64,000 nucleotides of DNA from IMG/VR virus record IMGVR_UViG_2974732567_000001, positions 36,199 to 100,198 of that record. The stretch is one strand, 5' to 3'. The position numbers were made by a program, and so were the translations under genes. This DNA is from a virus. Taxonomy: Duplodnaviria > Caudoviricetes. Below, one piece after another: positions 11,901-60,679 of the stretch. Within the stretch, counting starts at the first letter, position 1. Each line of letters starts with the position of its first letter. The notes beneath the pieces are model-generated. The model was given only the letters and a program-made list of their open reading frames with translations. It was not told the DNA's origin and made no database searches.

Positions 11901-14900
11901 TCTATTTATGTAGGATGACTTAACTGTATTACAGCACGTAGGTGAATTCAAATTTAATGGAGCTACATAGGATGCTACATCTGTAACTGATAATAATATA
12001 TGGTAGAGGTTGTAGTTATTATTTACTACTCTAGCTGGAATGACTGGTGAAGAGATAGATAAGTATAGGTGGAATACTATCAATAAAGGTTATGAGAAAA
12101 CAGGAGGAACTTATCCTGCATAGCAATCATGGTCTGCATTAGCTGATGATCTTACTTTAAGATTGAGTATTAGAAATGCTTATTCATACTTCATGATATG
12201 TGTAGTATTTGGGCTTGTTGACTCTCTAGGTAAAAACATGGTATTAAGATCGTGGAATGTTGGAGGATCTCTCACAGATTCTAATATGAACAAATGGTGG
12301 CCTTGTTTTTACGATATGGATACTGGAAATGGTATTAGTAATACTGGAGAAGAGAACGTGGCTAAAACCGCTTATATAGATGGTTTTAGTAATGCAGATG
12401 CTAGTTCAGGAGTAAACTCTTTAGTAATCAAACAAAATGATCCAAACAATGGTTACGATGAGTATTCTAGTAGATTATGGGATGTATTAAGAGATAGTAG
12501 ATTCATAAGTACTGGAGTATATTCAGGAAGTGATTACAATGGTTTATGGGACTTATGGAGAACTAATAGTTCTTTATTAACCAGTTCTTCTATGTATGTA
12601 GAAAATTACTTCAGTGCTCAAACGAAAAACTGTGGAGAACTTCTATACAACTATGACTATAGAGTAAAGTATCTTACTAAATACCAGAAAGATGAAGACA
12701 GTCCTGCTTCATATGCTAATGTAGAATTCTTGCATGGTACACGTAATGACTTTGTAAGAGATTGGTTAAAGAAGCGTTTGACGTTTATGGATGGAGTATT
12801 CTTGTTTGCTAACAATAATGTTATTTATCCCTACAACGAGAAAGGTTCATTTAAATGTGGTGGAGCTTAGACTAACAATTCTAAACTTACTGTTAAGATA
12901 AATAGTCCTGCTATTCTTACAGTAAATATAGGTAATGCTGCTGGTAGCGAGACTAGATATTATATTGAAGAAAATGTAGATACGGACATATATCTTTCAT
13001 CATTGTCATCTTTCAATACACAGATTACTGTTAATAATATGTCTGAAATAAGTAACATGATGGGACTAGATGAAATTAGGTTTCAAGGTTTTATGACATC
13101 TATGTCATTGCCTAGTATGTCCGAAATAGATATACAAAATACTAGTACATTATCATCGAATCCTATAGACTTTGCTACTATATTCGTTAAGAAATAGGAT
13201 GGTAAGAGTGTTTCAGATATTAGACATATTAACTTGTCTAACACTAGTTTTTGGTCAGGAAACAGTGGTGTTAACTCATTTCCAGTAGACGTATAGAACT
13301 ATAACAAATTAAAGACAATAGATATATCAAATGGATGTGTAACTTCACTAGCACTGCCTAATGCCGCACTATCTACTCTTACTCTAACAAATTCTGCGAT
13401 AGAAAGAGTAACTCTAGCTGACCAACCTTTTATTAGTAAAATTGATTTTACAGGATGTAATAAACTACAATCTGTAGAAGTAAGTAATTGTAACTAGATA
13501 ACGGAATTAGACTTACGTAATTTGAGTGACTTAACTAGTATCAATATTATTGGTTGTGCTAAGCTTGAAAGAATTTATGCACCTAACTGTAATAAGTTAG
13601 CCACATTTAATGTGTCAAATGCTAATGCACTTAAGTCTGTAACACTATCTAATTGCAATAATGCTAACTTAAGTATTAGTTTAGTAGGAGCTTCTAATCT
13701 TGAAGAACTGAATCTAGATAATACAAATACTACTGATGTAATTGAATTTGCACCAGGATTCAATAAATTGAAGGTATTAAATATTGCTTCAAGTAATATT
13801 AATGCATTTCAATTTGGAAATGATCCTGTAGCTACTACATCTACAGGTGAAAGAATACTAGATCTTAGTCCATTTACTTTTACTAATCTGTATATGTACT
13901 ATAATAGTTCTAAGTATGTAAAATTCAAGAATAGTAAAACCAACCCTTTAGAAGTTAATAGTTCTACCTTTAATAATTGTTCTAGTTTAACCAGAGTATT
14001 TGGACACATAAAACTAATATCAGGAAGTGTATTCAGTACTTGTCCTAACTTCTTTATACACGACGTACTAGAAGACGTGACTATTAAACCAACTAGAGGA
14101 CAATGGTATGGTCCAGATACAGATACTGCAGAAGGTTAGGAATAGTGGGATAACAATCAAGGATTAGAGACTAATATATCTATAGGTACTACTAATTTAA
14201 GTAACTGCTTTGTAGGAACTAAAGTAAACTTATACGATGTATATTATATATTGAACATGTGTGACAATGTTGAAAATATTGTTTCTATATTTCATTCTTG
14301 TTCAAATGTAATTACAGATTTTAGTAATCCTTTAAGTAGAGATACATTTAAATATTGCGGTAACATTACTAATGCTACTAATGCCTTCTACGCTACTAGA
14401 CTAACAGGTCCCATGTATAGTCCTACTCATACTGGAGATACAATTACTGAATACAATGGTTTATTAAGCCCTTTGAAGAAGTTAGTATATTGTAATAGTA
14501 TGTTTAAAACTACTGCTGGCAATTTCTACATAGATGATTTGTTCTTCGCAGAGATAGGCAACAATCAGTATTTACAATTGGCGCATCTGTATAGTATGTT
14601 CAATTACGGTGATAGCAATGTAATATTTGTGGATAACTGTGATGAAACTTTAACTTCAACAGAAGTAGCAGAGGGACGAAGAGCGTATGCTAGAGCATCT
14701 AAATTATTAAGAAATCTTCCCAATATAGATACTATAGCTAATATGTTTAATGGTTGTTGGTTTAATTTCGATACAGAAAGTACTGACGATAGTGTAACAT
14801 ATAGTCCGTTATTTGCTTATAATAATAAACTAAAAGTAGTTAGTTGGAGTTTCAGAAATATCAAAGCTAAAGGTTCATTGATTAATCTATTTGGTGGTAA

Positions 14901-17739: not shown

Positions 17740-20382
17740 AAAACAATTTTATATAATCCAATATTCATTAATCCTTAGGCATACTATGTGTTTCCAAGGT
17801 TAACTAGGTATCTACAGCCAGATAATGAGTCTACTGTAGAACCGGCTAACTATATAGGTACTATTGAAGTAAAAGTAATAGCATATGGAGATACTACTTT
17901 AAAAAGAACTTATTCTAGTACAGATTATATAGACCTAAGCGAATTCAAGAACACTTGGATACGCATTAGTCTATTTACTAAAGTAGGTTCATGTGTCTTA
18001 GGAGAATGGAAGATTGGTGACATGCAGACAGACTTACCTTATATAGAACCAGAAGTATTAGCTTCTCTTAAGGCTGTAGTTGTAGTAGGTAACAAAAGTA
18101 ATAGTGATAGTGATAGAGCTATTGTTAGGAACTTAGTAGATAAAGATAATCCGTTTATAATTAGTAATACTTCTTATAATCTTAATAGTGGTTATGGTAA
18201 ATATAATATTACTTTTCAATACTTTCCATATAGAGAAAACATAATAAGTATAAGTGATAACAAAGTAGTATTTGATAAAGGAGGATAGCTATTATTACCA
18301 TATCCATCAATGGATGAAGACATACCGTCATTTAAAATAAAGGTTAGCGGTTTAAGTGAAACTTATCATTTTAGGTATTATTACAGAACAGATGATGGAG
18401 TTCAACAATCTATAAACATGGCTAAGGATGGATATTATGAGTTACCTATAGGATATAATGTACAAAGTAGTTCTGATGGCACTAATTGCGGTTTTGCAAA
18501 TAACGGTTCTGATATAGTAACTATAGAATAGGTACCTGAATTCCAAGGAGCATTTGTTACAGATGGCGTTAATGACTTGATTACTTCTACTAAGACTGTA
18601 GAAGAGATGTTAGGAGGAAGCAATGAGCTAACCATTGTGTCCATGATTCATCAGGTTAAAGATTCAGCTAATAATGTATCTTTTACCAATTATATAAGAG
18701 GTAGTGCCAATGGCTATTTCCGTAATATCGTGAATAACTACGACAAGACTGGAATATATGGATATACTTCTTCTGACTTAATGGGTCTTTCAGTTGTAAA
18801 TAATATATTAGGCGATAAGAATGATTATACAGCTAATGGTGACAATAGAGACTCCATAATCAATGGTAATTTTAGCGTTCAAGGATATTCGTATAATGAC
18901 GGTAATAATACTGGTGATTTTAGTTCTGTAGCTTGGTACTGGACAATCATCGCCAACAAGGTACTGACTACCGACCAAATCAAGCAAGTAATCGCTTACT
19001 TCAACTTGGATAGAACTCTTAAACCTGATATACTGTGTAATACTATCAAGCAGGGAATCACTAACGAGAACCACGCAGAGTTTGGCGACAAGCTGATTGA
19101 CTTTTCAGGTAATGGTAGAGATATCCAATTAAATAATCTAGCTTGGAAAGGCGGTAGTGGTATCGCGGCTAAACAATATGAAACATTTAAAGATTGGACT
19201 AATACTCCTTATCAAACTTCGACAGTAACAGAAATAGATGAGTTTACTAGAGTAGTAGATTCTACTTCTAATGCTTATTGGGTAAGTATGATTAATAGAA
19301 CTTCTGATTTTGATAAAGTTCATGATTCTATTAATATAGTTCTATACCAAGATGATATGCTATTAGTTCATGAATGTAAATATAAGATAGACGAGAATGT
19401 TACAACTAAGGCATTATACGAAACTTTAAAATCGGGTGTAAATACAATAACATTAGCAACTATTGATAAGTTTACAGATATACCGGAAGATGCAGAAATA
19501 ATGAGTCTTGGCGAATGGGTTAATCCTAAAAGTAACAAAGGTTCTGTTAAGATAACTCTATTACCTAGTTACAAAGGAGGATTGTTGCTTGACGGAGTAA
19601 ATGACTTCGGTAAGGTGACAGGGATGCCTGTTTACAAGGATTATACTTTCATTATAGATAGACAAATAACATCTATTGGTGATACAGCCGGAGTAGTCGC
19701 TTCTAAATCCGAGGATTCAGCAGACGCAACTAAGCATGGAGCCTTCATATTTGAATATTTAGCTGCTCCTGATAAGATAAGTACTTGGAGTTTCTATAAA
19801 GATAATGGTAAAGTTGCTAATACTGATTTTACTAGAGGTATAAGTTATCAATCAACATATAGTTATAATGGAAAAGATTTAACTATCGGAACGTCTAAAG
19901 ATAGTGATAAATTATGGCTAGGGACAATTCGAGATAGAGATTCTCGTTTCTTCAACGGGGCTATCTACTCTCTCATGTCTTTCCCCTACTCCATGTCCGA
20001 GTTTCTAATCGAAAGACAACTAAAGAAGCATAAGTTAGGAACACTATACCCTAATATGGTTGAATTTAGACCTGTTATTAAAAGTAGTGTTGAATTAGCA
20101 AGTAAGCCAACATTTGTAATAAGAGGTACTCCTACATTGTTAAATGCAGGAGATTATATACCTGAAAACAGTGAAATATGGGTGGTGATAACCATGAATA
20201 ACGCTGCTGATAGGATGACTAAATTTGTTATCAACGGTAATACTATTGATATTCCTAGTTCTGCGTATAATCCTTCTACTATGAAATATAGTTTTCCTTC
20301 TACAATAGATAGTAAGTCTCCACAGAAGATTACTATGACTATCGAACAGGATGAAAACTACGTCCATTAGATTTTTATTTAA
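17737..20382 (+). CDS. Multi-LamG (ConA-like) receptor-binding protein, part 1 (modules 1-2)
   Basis: Fragments 17788, 18310 and 18577 joined at TAGs; two DGVND modules; frame lost at ~20362. Confidence 0.7.
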
Positions 20383-55792: not shown

Positions 55793-55819
55793 AAGGGCTG
55801 TTGTGAAACAGCCCTTTTT
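55793..55819. terminator. Terminator at the convergence of late and replication modules
   Basis: AAGGGCTGTT-GTGA-AACAGCCCTT stem-loop followed by a T-run. Confidence 0.85.
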
Positions 55820-56244
55820 CATTCAAACCTTTTATCTAAATCTGTTATCGTATTATAGACAACTTCTTTAATTTCTTTGTTTCTATCTCCCCAGAATTGG
55901 AATATAGGATACCAATCAGTAATACCAAATCCCAAATTTCCAGTTTGCTTATAATCCTCAAGTTCTCTACTATCTTCAGACTTTAAAGTAAATATAGTAT
56001 GTTTAACAGAATTAATATTGAATAATCTTTTGTTAAAATATGTCTTTTCACAAGTTAACCAACCTTCAATATCTTTTTCTTCTTCAATATCGTTGAATAT
56101 ATAGTCTAAATAAACAAAACCCTTAGAATAATCATCATAAAGGCTTGTATATAGTCCATTAAATGATTTATGTTCCAAGGGTTTTCTTTTACTTAATACT
56201 CTAGGAGATAGTAGTACTAATTCAGGCGTTAATTCCATCTTCAA
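55819..56244 (-). CDS. Hypothetical protein (start possibly 56238)
   Basis: Intact ORF in the replication operon. Confidence 0.65.
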   Translation of the reverse strand: MKMELTPELVLLSPRVLSKRKPLEHKSFNGLYTSLYDDYSKGFVYLDYIFNDIEEEKDIEGWLTCEKTYFNKRLFNINSVKHTIFTLKSEDSRELEDYKQTGNLGFGITDWYPIFQFWGDRNKEIKEVVYNTITDLDKRFE

Positions 56245-56389
56245 TACAAAATTCTCCGTCTACTTCAAGCGTTGAATACTGTGCTTCTTCTTCAACATTT
56301 TCAATAATAACACTGTTATACATAGCTTCAATTGCGCTCTCATCAGAGCCTTTTAATTGTTTTAAAGTTTTATAATTCTTCAGTTCCAT
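56222..56389 (-). CDS. Small acidic protein, 55 aa (below track cutoff)
   Basis: MELKNYKTLKQLKGSDESAIEAMY...; fills the gap and overlaps both neighbours. Confidence 0.55.
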   Translation of the reverse strand: MELKNYKTLKQLKGSDESAIEAMYNSVIIENVEEEAQYSTLEVDGEFCIEDGINA

Positions 56390-58285: not shown

Positions 58286-59065
58286 TTATGTTAGACTAAT
58301 GTTCATATCTTTAGCTAGTTCATCTAACGGAGTATCTTCAAATAAATTAACCTCATCTAAGAACGCAGAAATATTATCAAATGATTTAATTTCCATATGT
58401 TCTATTATAAAATCTACTACTTCATCTATTTTCTTTACTCCCTTGTCTTCTGCCATACAACGTACAAACACTGAATTAGAATTTGCTTCATATTTCTTGA
58501 AGTAACGAATACGTGAACAACGATCGAAGAAGTTGTCATCTATCTTTCCTGTTTCATTACAGGTCATTAGTACTAATTTCTTAGTATTATCTTCGACACC
58601 ATCTAAAAATCCTAACATATCTGTACTATCCCAGTTGTAATCGTTTTTTTCTATCTCATCAAACAATATTACTACAGGAGTAGTAAACTGTTTAAAGAAA
58701 GAATTTAGTCTACTGCTAGGATAACTAGTAGATACTATAATAATAGGCAAATTACTTTCTATAGCAATACGTTTGGAGAGCATCGTTTTACCTGTACCTT
58801 TAGTACCTGAAAGTAATACACCAACTGTTTTACCAGAATTTTCGGAGTTGAAATATTTGAGTACACGCTCAATGAATTCATTATCCTCTTTAAGCTTGTA
58901 TAACTTCTTAGGCATGTTAAAATTACCATTTTCCTTTAAATAAGATCTTCCAGATCTACAATCAAAGTAAAGGTCATAAATTTTACCATTCTTAAGATCA
59001 TACTCTAAACCGTCAAGTTTAGGTATTACGTTAATTTCATCTCCAACTTTAATAAATTCTGCCAT
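58286..59065 (-). CDS. AAA+ ATPase
   Basis: Walker A GTKGTGKT, Walker B ILFDE, MTCN sensor, DRCSRI. Confidence 0.9.
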   Translation of the reverse strand: MAEFIKVGDEINVIPKLDGLEYDLKNGKIYDLYFDCRSGRSYLKENGNFNMPKKLYKLKEDNEFIERVLKYFNSENSGKTVGVLLSGTKGTGKTMLSKRIAIESNLPIIIVSTSYPSSRLNSFFKQFTTPVVILFDEIEKNDYNWDSTDMLGFLDGVEDNTKKLVLMTCNETGKIDDNFFDRCSRIRYFKKYEANSNSVFVRCMAEDKGVKKIDEVVDFIIEHMEIKSFDNISAFLDEVNLFEDTPLDELAKDMNISLT

Positions 59066-59076
59066 GATATTTGTTT

Positions 59077-59457
59077 TTATGTTTTTAACTTGTCGATTAA
59101 TTCATCAACTTGTTTCTATGTGTGTACTACATAAAACCTAGTTTTAGGTTCATGTGTATACAAATAGTAATTAAATAACTTTTCACGTAAAGGCCATGCC
59201 TCATTTGGAAAGCCTTTACATTCAATCACAAAACCTTTACCAACAAAATCTGGTAAATAGGTCATTGATCTGTATTTCTTTTTGTTAAAAGTAAAAGCTG
59301 GAAGTAGCTCATATCTATGCATTTCATAATCTGCCTAGATTTTTGCTTCTTTCAGCTTTTTATATGTATATGTTTCAAGTTTACTTCGAAATTTAATTCC
59401 GTCATATTCGTTAGGAGTTGCATTTCGAACTCTACCTTGTTTTTTCTATTTCTTCAT
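59077..59457 (-). CDS. T7 endonuclease I/DUF1064-like PD-(D/E)XK nuclease (resolvase candidate), 126 aa (code 15)
   Basis: YDGIKFRSKLE, YLPDF, IECKG; complete only if TAGs at 59446-48, 59335-37 and 59116-18 are Gln. Confidence 0.8.
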
Positions 59458-60409
59458 ATAGCCATTTTTTTACTTTTTCAAATTCATTTAACTTAATAGC
59501 ATCAGATATATCTTTTGCTTTAAATTTCTTATGGACTAACATACCTTCTAAGCCTGTTTTGAGGCTCATTTTACGGAGATATTTTACTCCTGCTTCATCT
59601 CTATCAAACAATATAATAATGCGTTTAAAACGCTTCTTTAATTGTTCTAGAATCTTATCAGGTATAAATGTAGATTCGGATGAAGGCGAAATGGCTGGAA
59701 TACCCATTTCATATAAACACATAACATCTTTCATACTTTTGGTAATAATCAAGATATCACCTGTCTTTGGAAGTTGCTTAAACCCTTGAATATCTAATTC
59801 AGTAAGATTATTACGCCATTTTGTATATTTATCTGCTAAAGGTTTATAAATCTTAAAATGATTATATACCTTATAAGCATACATAGGATTATCCTCTTTA
59901 TAAATGCTTTTTACTATGCCATTACATAGGTAGTACTTTATACTACTTACTCCAAATTTTCTTAGAGTTTCTACCGATATATTAAACTGCTTCCAGTAAT
60001 TGATGTCAGTTTCAGTGAATTCTTGACGTACAACACCAATTACTGTTTCAGTTGACGGTATATATTGCTTAGAGCTAACGAGTTGCGTATCATTAGTAAT
60101 TTTAAGTTTTTCAACAATATCTTTAAGTATATCTGAATAATTAGTTATACCTGTATAAAGTTCTATAAACTTTATTACATTTCCACATTGACCTGTTCCA
60201 TGATCCTTAAACAATAACTGCTTTGTTTTTCTACTATAAAAGCATCCAAATGAAGGAGTTTTGTCTTTTCTCAATGGAGAATTATAGATCATTCCTACTT
60301 TAAAATTACCTATATACGCTGCATATATATCATATTCTGTTACTCTAGAAAGAATCCAATCTAGAGTTATATTAAATGTGTCTTTTACTTTTGTTGTATC
60401 GTAAACCAT
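59432..60409 (-). CDS. DNA primase (DnaG-type TOPRIM); ends at 59411 if the TAG is read through
   Basis: SPLRKDKTPSF, ITKSMKD, LFDRDEAG, KDISD. Confidence 0.85.
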   Translation of the reverse strand: MVYDTTKVKDTFNITLDWILSRVTEYDIYAAYIGNFKVGMIYNSPLRKDKTPSFGCFYSRKTKQLLFKDHGTGQCGNVIKFIELYTGITNYSDILKDIVEKLKITNDTQLVSSKQYIPSTETVIGVVRQEFTETDINYWKQFNISVETLRKFGVSSIKYYLCNGIVKSIYKEDNPMYAYKVYNHFKIYKPLADKYTKWRNNLTELDIQGFKQLPKTGDILIITKSMKDVMCLYEMGIPAISPSSESTFIPDKILEQLKKRFKRIIILFDRDEAGVKYLRKMSLKTGLEGMLVHKKFKAKDISDAIKLNEFEKVKKWLYEEIEKTR

Positions 60410-60424
60410 ATGATATATTATTTA

Positions 60425-60498
60425 TTGTCAAAGTAATGGGAATCGAACCACATCATATAAGCGATCAACCTTATACGTAACCCAATTAATATACTCTA
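60425..60498 (-). tRNA. Degenerate tRNA-like element
   Basis: 74-nt cloverleaf: TAGAGTA/TACTTTG acceptor, TATAAG/CTTATA stem with 8-nt loop, GGTTCGATTCC T-loop, 3' ACAA. Confidence 0.45.
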
Positions 60499-60679
60499 CT
60501 CTAATAAATATTTCAATAATAACCTTGCTAGCCTACAGTTATTATATACTTTATTTATTTTTCTTTCGATTAAATTAATTTGTTATACTTCGGTATAAAA
60601 CGTAGGCTGTGTACTATAGTACACTAACCTACGTATTCCTAGCTTATGCTCTAGGTAGCAACTGTTTTTTTAGAGTTTA

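Follow-up and report, generated by a model that had tools for sequence, protein, structure and literature searches.

The window analysed here is a 64,000-nucleotide stretch (bases 36199-100198) of the circular 100,198-bp genome of a gut crAss-like phage placed in the Suoliviridae. The phage is Buchavirus-like, with a genome of ~100 kb, and its closest named relatives belong to Buchavirus (Crassvirales, Suoliviridae, Loutivirinae). The minus strand of the window holds a replication operon in which a DnaB-type helicase, a 143-aa protein of unknown function, a Sak4-like ATPase, a 206-aa product labelled 'SSB', a 270-nt gap, a primase and the nuclease studied here are followed by an AAA ATPase, a metallophosphoesterase, a PD-(D/E)XK exonuclease, a small unknown and a terminal hairpin (Table 1). 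Family matches were obtained for the DnaB-type helicase, the Sak4-like AAA_24 ATPase, the AAA ATPase, the Toprim/zinc-ribbon primase, the calcineurin-like phosphoesterase and the PD-(D/E)XK exonuclease. These agree with the names that a first-pass annotation, made from the letters of the sequence, had given to the helicase, ATPases, primase, phosphoesterase and exonuclease; the name 'SSB' did not gain the same backing, as the 206-aa product has no family match.

Table 1. Features of the nuclease locus and of the code switch. Positions refer to the window unless marked as genome positions.
Feature	Position	Strand	Remarks
DUF1064-type PD-(D/E)XK nuclease gene, putative Holliday junction resolvase	59077..59457	-	126 sense codons; requires read-through of TAG as Gln
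TAG codon 4	59446-59448	-	leader amber codon in basic N-terminal tail (MKK#KKQGRV)
TAG codon 41	59335-59337	-	inside nuclease domain, variable position
TAG codon 114	59116-59118	-	conserved glutamine position
DNA primase gene (Toprim + CHC2 zinc ribbon)	59432..60409	-	325 aa under standard code
AAA ATPase gene	58286..59065	-	TAG-free; starts 11 nt after nuclease stop
Last small gene of the operon	55819..56343	-	TAG at codon 28 of longest frame
Hairpin closing the replication operon and the convergent late operon	55793..55816	both	AAGGGCTGTT/GTGA/AACAGCCCTT; perfect 10-bp stem, 5 G-C pairs, T-runs on both strands
Suppressor tRNA, anticodon CTA	genome 24176-24250		between small plus-strand early genes and late block, just upstream of the latter

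The nuclease gene, which begins with the ATG at 59455-59457 and ends with the TAA at 59077-59079, overlaps the primase gene by 26-47 nt, and a scan for terminators found none near it. Together with the 11-nt spacing to the AAA ATPase gene, this arrangement makes it plausible that the nuclease is co-transcribed with the replication operon, which lends support to the shared transcript assumed in the first-pass annotation. In crAss001 and phi14:2, the replication operon is transcribed as a middle unit. One RNA run, from chicken gut, contained only 5% of the sampled sequence words, all of them in contigs. The hairpin at the end of the operon is likely to be a bidirectional terminator, and the hairpin scan as a whole returned 11 terminator-like sites against 2.0 expected. 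Promoter scans found no late-promoter motif upstream of the nuclease gene: sigma-70-type sites occurred at chance level (49 against 49.8 expected), the Bacteroides-type promoter TTTG-N17-23-TAnnTTTG gave 2 matches against 2.9 expected with none near the gene, and the AAC-N16/17-CGTT motif had no match upstream of it. The 270-nt gap upstream of the primase gene (60410-60679) is non-coding; its equivalent in Oafivirinae holds ordinary tRNA genes (Leu-TAA, Val-GAC, Gln-TTG).

The phage reassigns TAG to glutamine, and its genome encodes a suppressor tRNA with anticodon CTA. The plus-strand late genes of the window contain 207 TAGs in 18,132 codons (1.1 per 100 codons), and one late ORF of 4,494 codons carries 55 of them. 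With TAGs in the late genes, a CTA tRNA and TAG positions that align with CAA or CAG, the genome both uses the reassignment and encodes the means for it, as the recoding described by Borges et al. (bioRxiv 10.1101/2021.08.26.457843) demands. A third tRNA-like gene (genome 24065-24167; L322:19066-19168) immediately precedes the CTA suppressor tRNA and a tRNA-Met. Its sequence is interrupted, once the anticodon loop has begun, by 32 inserted nucleotides; it scores 35 bits against the Rfam tRNA model and was missed by ARAGORN. In the early arms, which lie beyond the window (genome 11717-23302, L322), several small ORFs contain TAGs the position of which is ambiguous, such as those at codons 7, 20 and 28 of 13517-13927 and at codons 25 and 37 of 19304-19543. 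No PHROG match was found for any of these TAG-bearing small ORFs, which may be recoded genes or artefacts of ORF calling.

The nuclease ORF has three TAGs in its 126 codons, at the positions given by the first-pass annotation (4, 41 and 114), which left the strand unnamed, and neither TAA nor TGA interrupts this minus-strand frame. There is no ATG, GTG or TTG between TAG4 and the conserved core, and the two further TAGs (codons 41 and 114) lie inside the domain, so the full-length nuclease depends on read-through. The longest standard-code sub-ORF is 68 codons long and lacks E28. An internal start at M46 was rejected, because this Met is not conserved (Q/K/T in relatives) and its product would also be without E28. 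It follows from the sequence that a full-length, catalytically complete nuclease would be impossible to make without TAG read-through, and the gene is suppression-dependent as Borges et al. use the term, in that its full-length product requires in-frame reassigned stops. Across 68 unique orthologues, the codon-41 column has TAG in 8 and otherwise L/K/T/I/N/M/R/S, while the codon-114 column has TAG in 17, CAG in 34 and CAA in 17; this mixture of TAG with CAG and CAA directly supports the reading of TAG as Gln.

When TAG is translated as Gln, residues 16-98 of the product match Pfam DUF1064 (PF06356) with 44.6 bits against a cut-off of 24.7 (E 2.2e-11), and the protein matches phrog_190, 'Holliday junction resolvase', with E 7e-15. 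An AlphaFold2 model computed with 28 orthologues reaches a mean pLDDT of 87, and its best fold matches are PD-(D/E)XK nucleases with Z 7-8.8, led by the I-Bth0305I catalytic domain (Z 8.8) and VRR_NUC (Z 8.3) and joined by Bax1, TnsA, Vsr and Hjc. E28, P69-D70, E79 and K81 are invariant in the 28 orthologues, which places the E, PD and (D/E)xK residues of the superfamily on a restriction-endonuclease-like fold. In two papers on the PD-(D/E)XK superfamily, DUF1064 is listed among the predicted nucleases to which no function is assigned and is noted as a neighbour of genes for recombination and replication, and the family to which the protein has its significant match, also called the phiH ORF25 family, typically sits beside RecT, DnaB, DnaC or SSB-type phage genes.

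The product had initially been called an 'endonuclease I-type' resolvase, a label that gave way to DUF1064, since the score against the T7 endonuclease I family (PF05367, Phage_endo_I) falls short of the Pfam threshold (20.0 bits against 29.1). The two enzymes are nevertheless alike as small PD-(D/E)XK proteins with the same E...PDF...ExK motif order, in an alignment that covers the motifs, and T7 endonuclease I entries (3cae, 1m0d, 1fzr, 2pfj) are the top sequence matches in a PDB profile search, at E 0.1-1.1. The fold search, by contrast, ranked I-Bth0305I, VRR_NUC, Bax1, TnsA and Vsr higher. Foldseek, run with a monomer model that cannot show domain swapping, returned 2pfj and 3cae at E 0.4-0.6, and neither is among the VIA-align matches listed. 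The gene product is probably a small structure-specific PD-(D/E)XK nuclease that serves as the branch or Holliday-junction resolvase of the phage. The more specific name 'Holliday junction resolvase', which the 94% identical orthologue in cr109_1 also bears, is an annotation-level assignment that draws on phrog_190 and RefSeq and on the similarity in fold to VRR_NUC and Hjc.

Within the window, the nuclease gene stands apart from the operon around it. The ten other replication-operon genes comprise 2,409 codons with no true internal TAG, or two TAGs if their longest read-through frames are taken, against 3 in 126 for the nuclease (Fisher p = 1.2e-4 to 1.1e-3). The comparison with the late genes (207/18,132) reveals no difference (p = 0.18). 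As its TAG density differs from that of the operon and not from that of the late genes, the nuclease is coded like a late gene: it is a late-coded gene inside an early-coded operon. The absence of internal TAGs from the neighbours, already remarked on in the first-pass annotation, survives a closer look at the two TAGs of the read-through frames, of which that of the primase is its stop and that of the last small gene precedes the likely start.

The TAG of the primase frame (59432-59434) is codon 326 of a 332-codon read-through frame and lies where the primase and nuclease genes overlap. No other gene of this operon ends in TAG, and the primase stop falls inside the nuclease leader, in another frame, 12 nt downstream of TAG4. 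Once the code has switched, the primase would be extended by 7 residues, up to the TAA at 59411-59413, and its terminal TAG is kept in ~14 close relatives. For the last small gene, the alignment with the cr6_1 homologue does not begin until residue 42, an ATG is present at codon 36, and some relatives have three TAGs, at codons 26, 28 and 34. We rejected it as a second recoded case, as TAG28 most likely precedes the true start, for which the ATG at codon 36 is the probable candidate, and the gene is then probably standard-coded.

Relatives were collected from four IMG/VR scans and 15 GenBank/RefSeq records, giving ~320 loci, 279 of which have recoded late genes (1.81 TAG per 100 codons in the latter). 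Gene families were compared by means of representative queries, and an ORF was counted as needing suppression when its longest standard-code sub-ORF was shorter than 90% of its length (Table 2). Orthologues of the nuclease are suppression-dependent in ~70% of the recoded relatives (193/279), compared with 0-4 loci for each neighbour family, and all conserved neighbour families have 0-0.035 TAG per 100 codons. The enrichment of TAG in the nuclease amounts to ~20-fold or more over each conserved neighbour family and to ~10-fold over pooled same-strand ORFs. In the 80 closest loci, every TAG in a neighbour gene falls at one of the ends of its ORF, either as a real stop or upstream of the real start. 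The proposal that orthologues in other recoded crAss-like phages should be TAG-enriched relative to their operon neighbours is hence largely borne out, with the Oafivirinae and one Loutivirinae lineage as exceptions.

Table 2. TAG codons in the nuclease and in neighbouring gene families at loci with recoded late genes.
Gene family	Loci	Any TAG	Needing suppression	TAG per 100 codons
Nuclease (this gene)	279	196	193	0.66
Exonuclease	279	20	1	
Primase	273	26	3	
Sak4-like ATPase	268	2	2	
SSB-like	261	9	4	
DnaB helicase	258	11	0	
DNA polymerase	257	46	1	
AAA ATPase	209	10	1	
Phosphoesterase	168	6	1	
Two conserved unknowns	254 and 188	0	0	0

The operons of some relatives also contain HNH and 'mobile intron' endonuclease genes, and these are not TAG-dependent. 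The signal is therefore specific to the DUF1064-type nuclease and not a property of nuclease genes generally, and a general rule that dangerous nucleases are gated in these operons was rejected on the same ground. Such insertions (for example L085:9031-9570, L082:4861-5616 and L082:10742-11608) sometimes split the AAA ATPase, helicase or phosphoesterase genes. The nuclease gene itself is syntenic in all subfamilies of the Suoliviridae, including those with the standard code, which indicates that it is not a recent insert. Of the 41 Kehishuvirus-like loci of Steigviridae retrieved with the crAss001-type homologue, none departs from the standard code.

The clade pattern emerges from a tree built for the neighbouring exonuclease. 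The orthologue is free of TAG in the Oafivirinae (~85 loci), the late genes of which are recoded, and dependence on suppression is conserved in three subfamilies: the Bearivirinae (~67 loci) share a single TAG, fixed at the position that corresponds to codon 33, and in the Uncouvirinae and Loutivirinae a TAG lies in the basic N-terminal leader, with the extra TAGs at codons 41 and 114 belonging to the window's own lineage. One recoded lineage of 10 Loutivirinae loci also has a nuclease without TAG. Because these Loutivirinae and the Oafivirinae are TAG-free despite being recoded, the lock must be dispensable. A BLAST search with the suppressor tRNA of this genome found a homologue in just 1 of the 5 relatives' records (cr7_1) and does not account for the differences between clades. 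On the exonuclease tree, the state 'needs suppression' changes 2 times, the leader TAG 7 times and the body TAG 8 times; that the first of these changes just twice points to few independent origins. Genes with a leader TAG overlap an upstream primase, HNH or small ORF by 4-59 nt in some cases and follow a gap of 130-290 nt in others, and given this variety of upstream arrangements we rejected the idea that the primase overlap brings about the leader TAG.

We propose that the gene carries an amber lock, to which we assign a probability of about 0.6: the nuclease would sit in the standard-coded 'middle' replication operon, be made once UAG is read as Gln and be functionally late. Probably transcribed together with the operon, its message would offer ribosomes a single start codon followed by UAG at codon 4, with further UAGs at codons 41 and 114. 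As long as the host reads UAG as stop, ribosomes would release a tripeptide and no enzyme, and so early a stop would also spare the making of truncated fragments. Once the CUA-anticodon tRNA reads UAG as glutamine efficiently, the full 126-residue enzyme could be produced, and the protein would be late in function despite the place of its gene in a middle operon. Judging from its codons, the nuclease can probably be made only after the code switch of the phage, which we take to set in late in infection. What the phage would probably gain is that branched intermediates of replication and recombination, which may be harmed by early expression of the nuclease, would remain uncut while the Sak4-like ATPase, the exonuclease and the Mre11-like phosphoesterase produce them, and that debranching would coincide with packaging.

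The main competitor of this reading, to our minds a serious one though rather unlikely, is that there is no gate: the enzyme would be needed only late, selection on its codons would be relaxed, TAGs would drift in at the frequency of late genes and the early absence of the protein would be a side effect. TAG density in the nuclease (2.4 per 100 codons in the window, 0.66 in the family) is indeed no higher than in late genes (1.1-1.8), the ratio TAG/(TAG+CAA+CAG) of 0.22 is similar to theirs, and the TAG-free lineages and the small number of independent state changes are what such tolerance would leave behind. The basic leader moreover has many AAG and AAA codons, of which AAG needs a single mutation to become TAG; yet the leaders of the Oafivirinae are equally lysine-rich and do not have a single TAG. 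Mere drift also sits poorly with the distribution of the codons, given that ~72% of the TAGs in the 80 closest loci (68 unique sequences) fall in the first ~10 codons, or ~8% of the gene length. In the Loutivirinae and Uncouvirinae, a TAG is present among the first ~10 codons in 19 of the 20 leader types, against a baseline of 9.4% of late ORFs with a TAG in codons 2-10, and the position of this TAG turns over among at least 8 alignment columns while at least one TAG is retained. The turnover with retention and the clustering near the start argue for selection over tolerance, an argument that, given the modest number of independent lineages, is no more than suggestive.

The TAGs could alternatively act as a dose throttle rather than a timer, with read-through competing with RF1 and one to three UAGs keeping the nuclease low throughout infection. 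Resolvases act catalytically and suffice at low copy number, and several TAGs would multiply the attenuation. A protein of 4,494 residues made through 55 UAGs, though, implies late read-through of >~95% per codon, at which three UAGs cost little, while the yield before suppression would be essentially zero, as expected of a switch. Since the long late ORF demands that late suppression be efficient, the TAGs are better understood as a switch than as a throttle, and we regard the latter as improbable. That the nuclease is the only recoded gene of its operon might also suggest decay, or a recent transfer from the late region or from another recoded phage. Against this, the frames of the 305 orthologues examined stay open for ~125-140 codons and are interrupted by TAG only, never by TAA or TGA; the catalytic E28, D70, E79 and K81 are invariant; and the position between the primase and the AAA ATPase or exonuclease is constant in every subfamily, standard-code genera included, all of which makes a pseudogene or a foreign gene highly implausible.

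An extension of the amber-lock reading, which we put forward tentatively and hold to be possible but somewhat less than even in likelihood, concerns its maintenance. In the Loutivirinae and Uncouvirinae, selection may maintain a dedicated amber codon in the first ~10 codons of the leader, re-created at or moved to at least 8 positions in the course of repeated rebuilding of the gene's 5' junction, and it would thereby keep a junction-cutting enzyme off during recombination-dependent replication. The fixed codon-33 TAG of the Bearivirinae would solve the same problem, which the Oafivirinae would solve by other means.

Recoding as a switch for late and lysis genes of gut phages has been published (Ivanova 2014; Yutin 2021, PMC7886860; Borges et al., bioRxiv 10.1101/2021.08.26.457843; Peters 2022, PMC9523058), and the present phage resembles those described there in its phage group, its standard-coded replication block, its late genes with TAG read as Gln and its phage-borne suppressor tRNA. 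Borges et al. named only the amidase, the spanin, the tail tube and one unknown family as preferentially TAG-coded in crAss-like phages and called the replication machinery of these phages standard-coded; the resolvase-like gene does not come up there. In the TGA-recoded Agate phages, they also described a preferentially recoded group I intron homing endonuclease in an early gene, the expression of which would be 'prevented until late'. The hallmark of the nuclease is one TAG in the first ~10 codons and not a heavy TAG load. Full-text searches of the literature turned up no mention of a recoded resolvase or DUF1064 gene in Crassvirales. The suggestion, made at the outset, that the switch extends beyond structural and lysis genes is accordingly new in naming a resolvase-like gene and anticipated in its logic by the homing endonuclease of Borges et al., a direct precedent; the finding extends a timing idea already in print to one more gene.

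Other phages offer instructive comparisons. In T4, the nucleases I-TevI, I-TevII, I-TevIII, segB and mobE are encoded in early transcripts, and their translation is delayed by an RNA hairpin that hides the ribosome-binding site. These genes share with the crAss-like nuclease the presence of a DNA-cutting enzyme in an early or middle mRNA that is translated only late; they differ in that T4 uses an RNA hairpin over the ribosome-binding site together with a late promoter within it, whereas the crAss-like gene would use a codon of changing meaning. Endonuclease VII, the packaging-linked junction resolvase encoded by T4 gene 49, is reportedly also subject to translational delay in an early transcript. 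T7 endonuclease I is the product of gene 3, a class II gene without any codon lock, unlike the nuclease gene described here.

As a practical matter, gene callers that assume the standard code miss or truncate the nuclease gene. The gene also offers a compact test system, in which a 10-codon leader with or without its TAG is combined with the presence or absence of the suppressor tRNA, and which could time the code switch in crAss-like phages. If the proposed amber lock is real, stop-codon recoding would time a single gene inside a host-code operon, beyond the block-wise code of the late genes. A junction-cutting nuclease would then be the one function of the replication module that these phages must keep off early, and T4 would follow the same logic by another mechanism.
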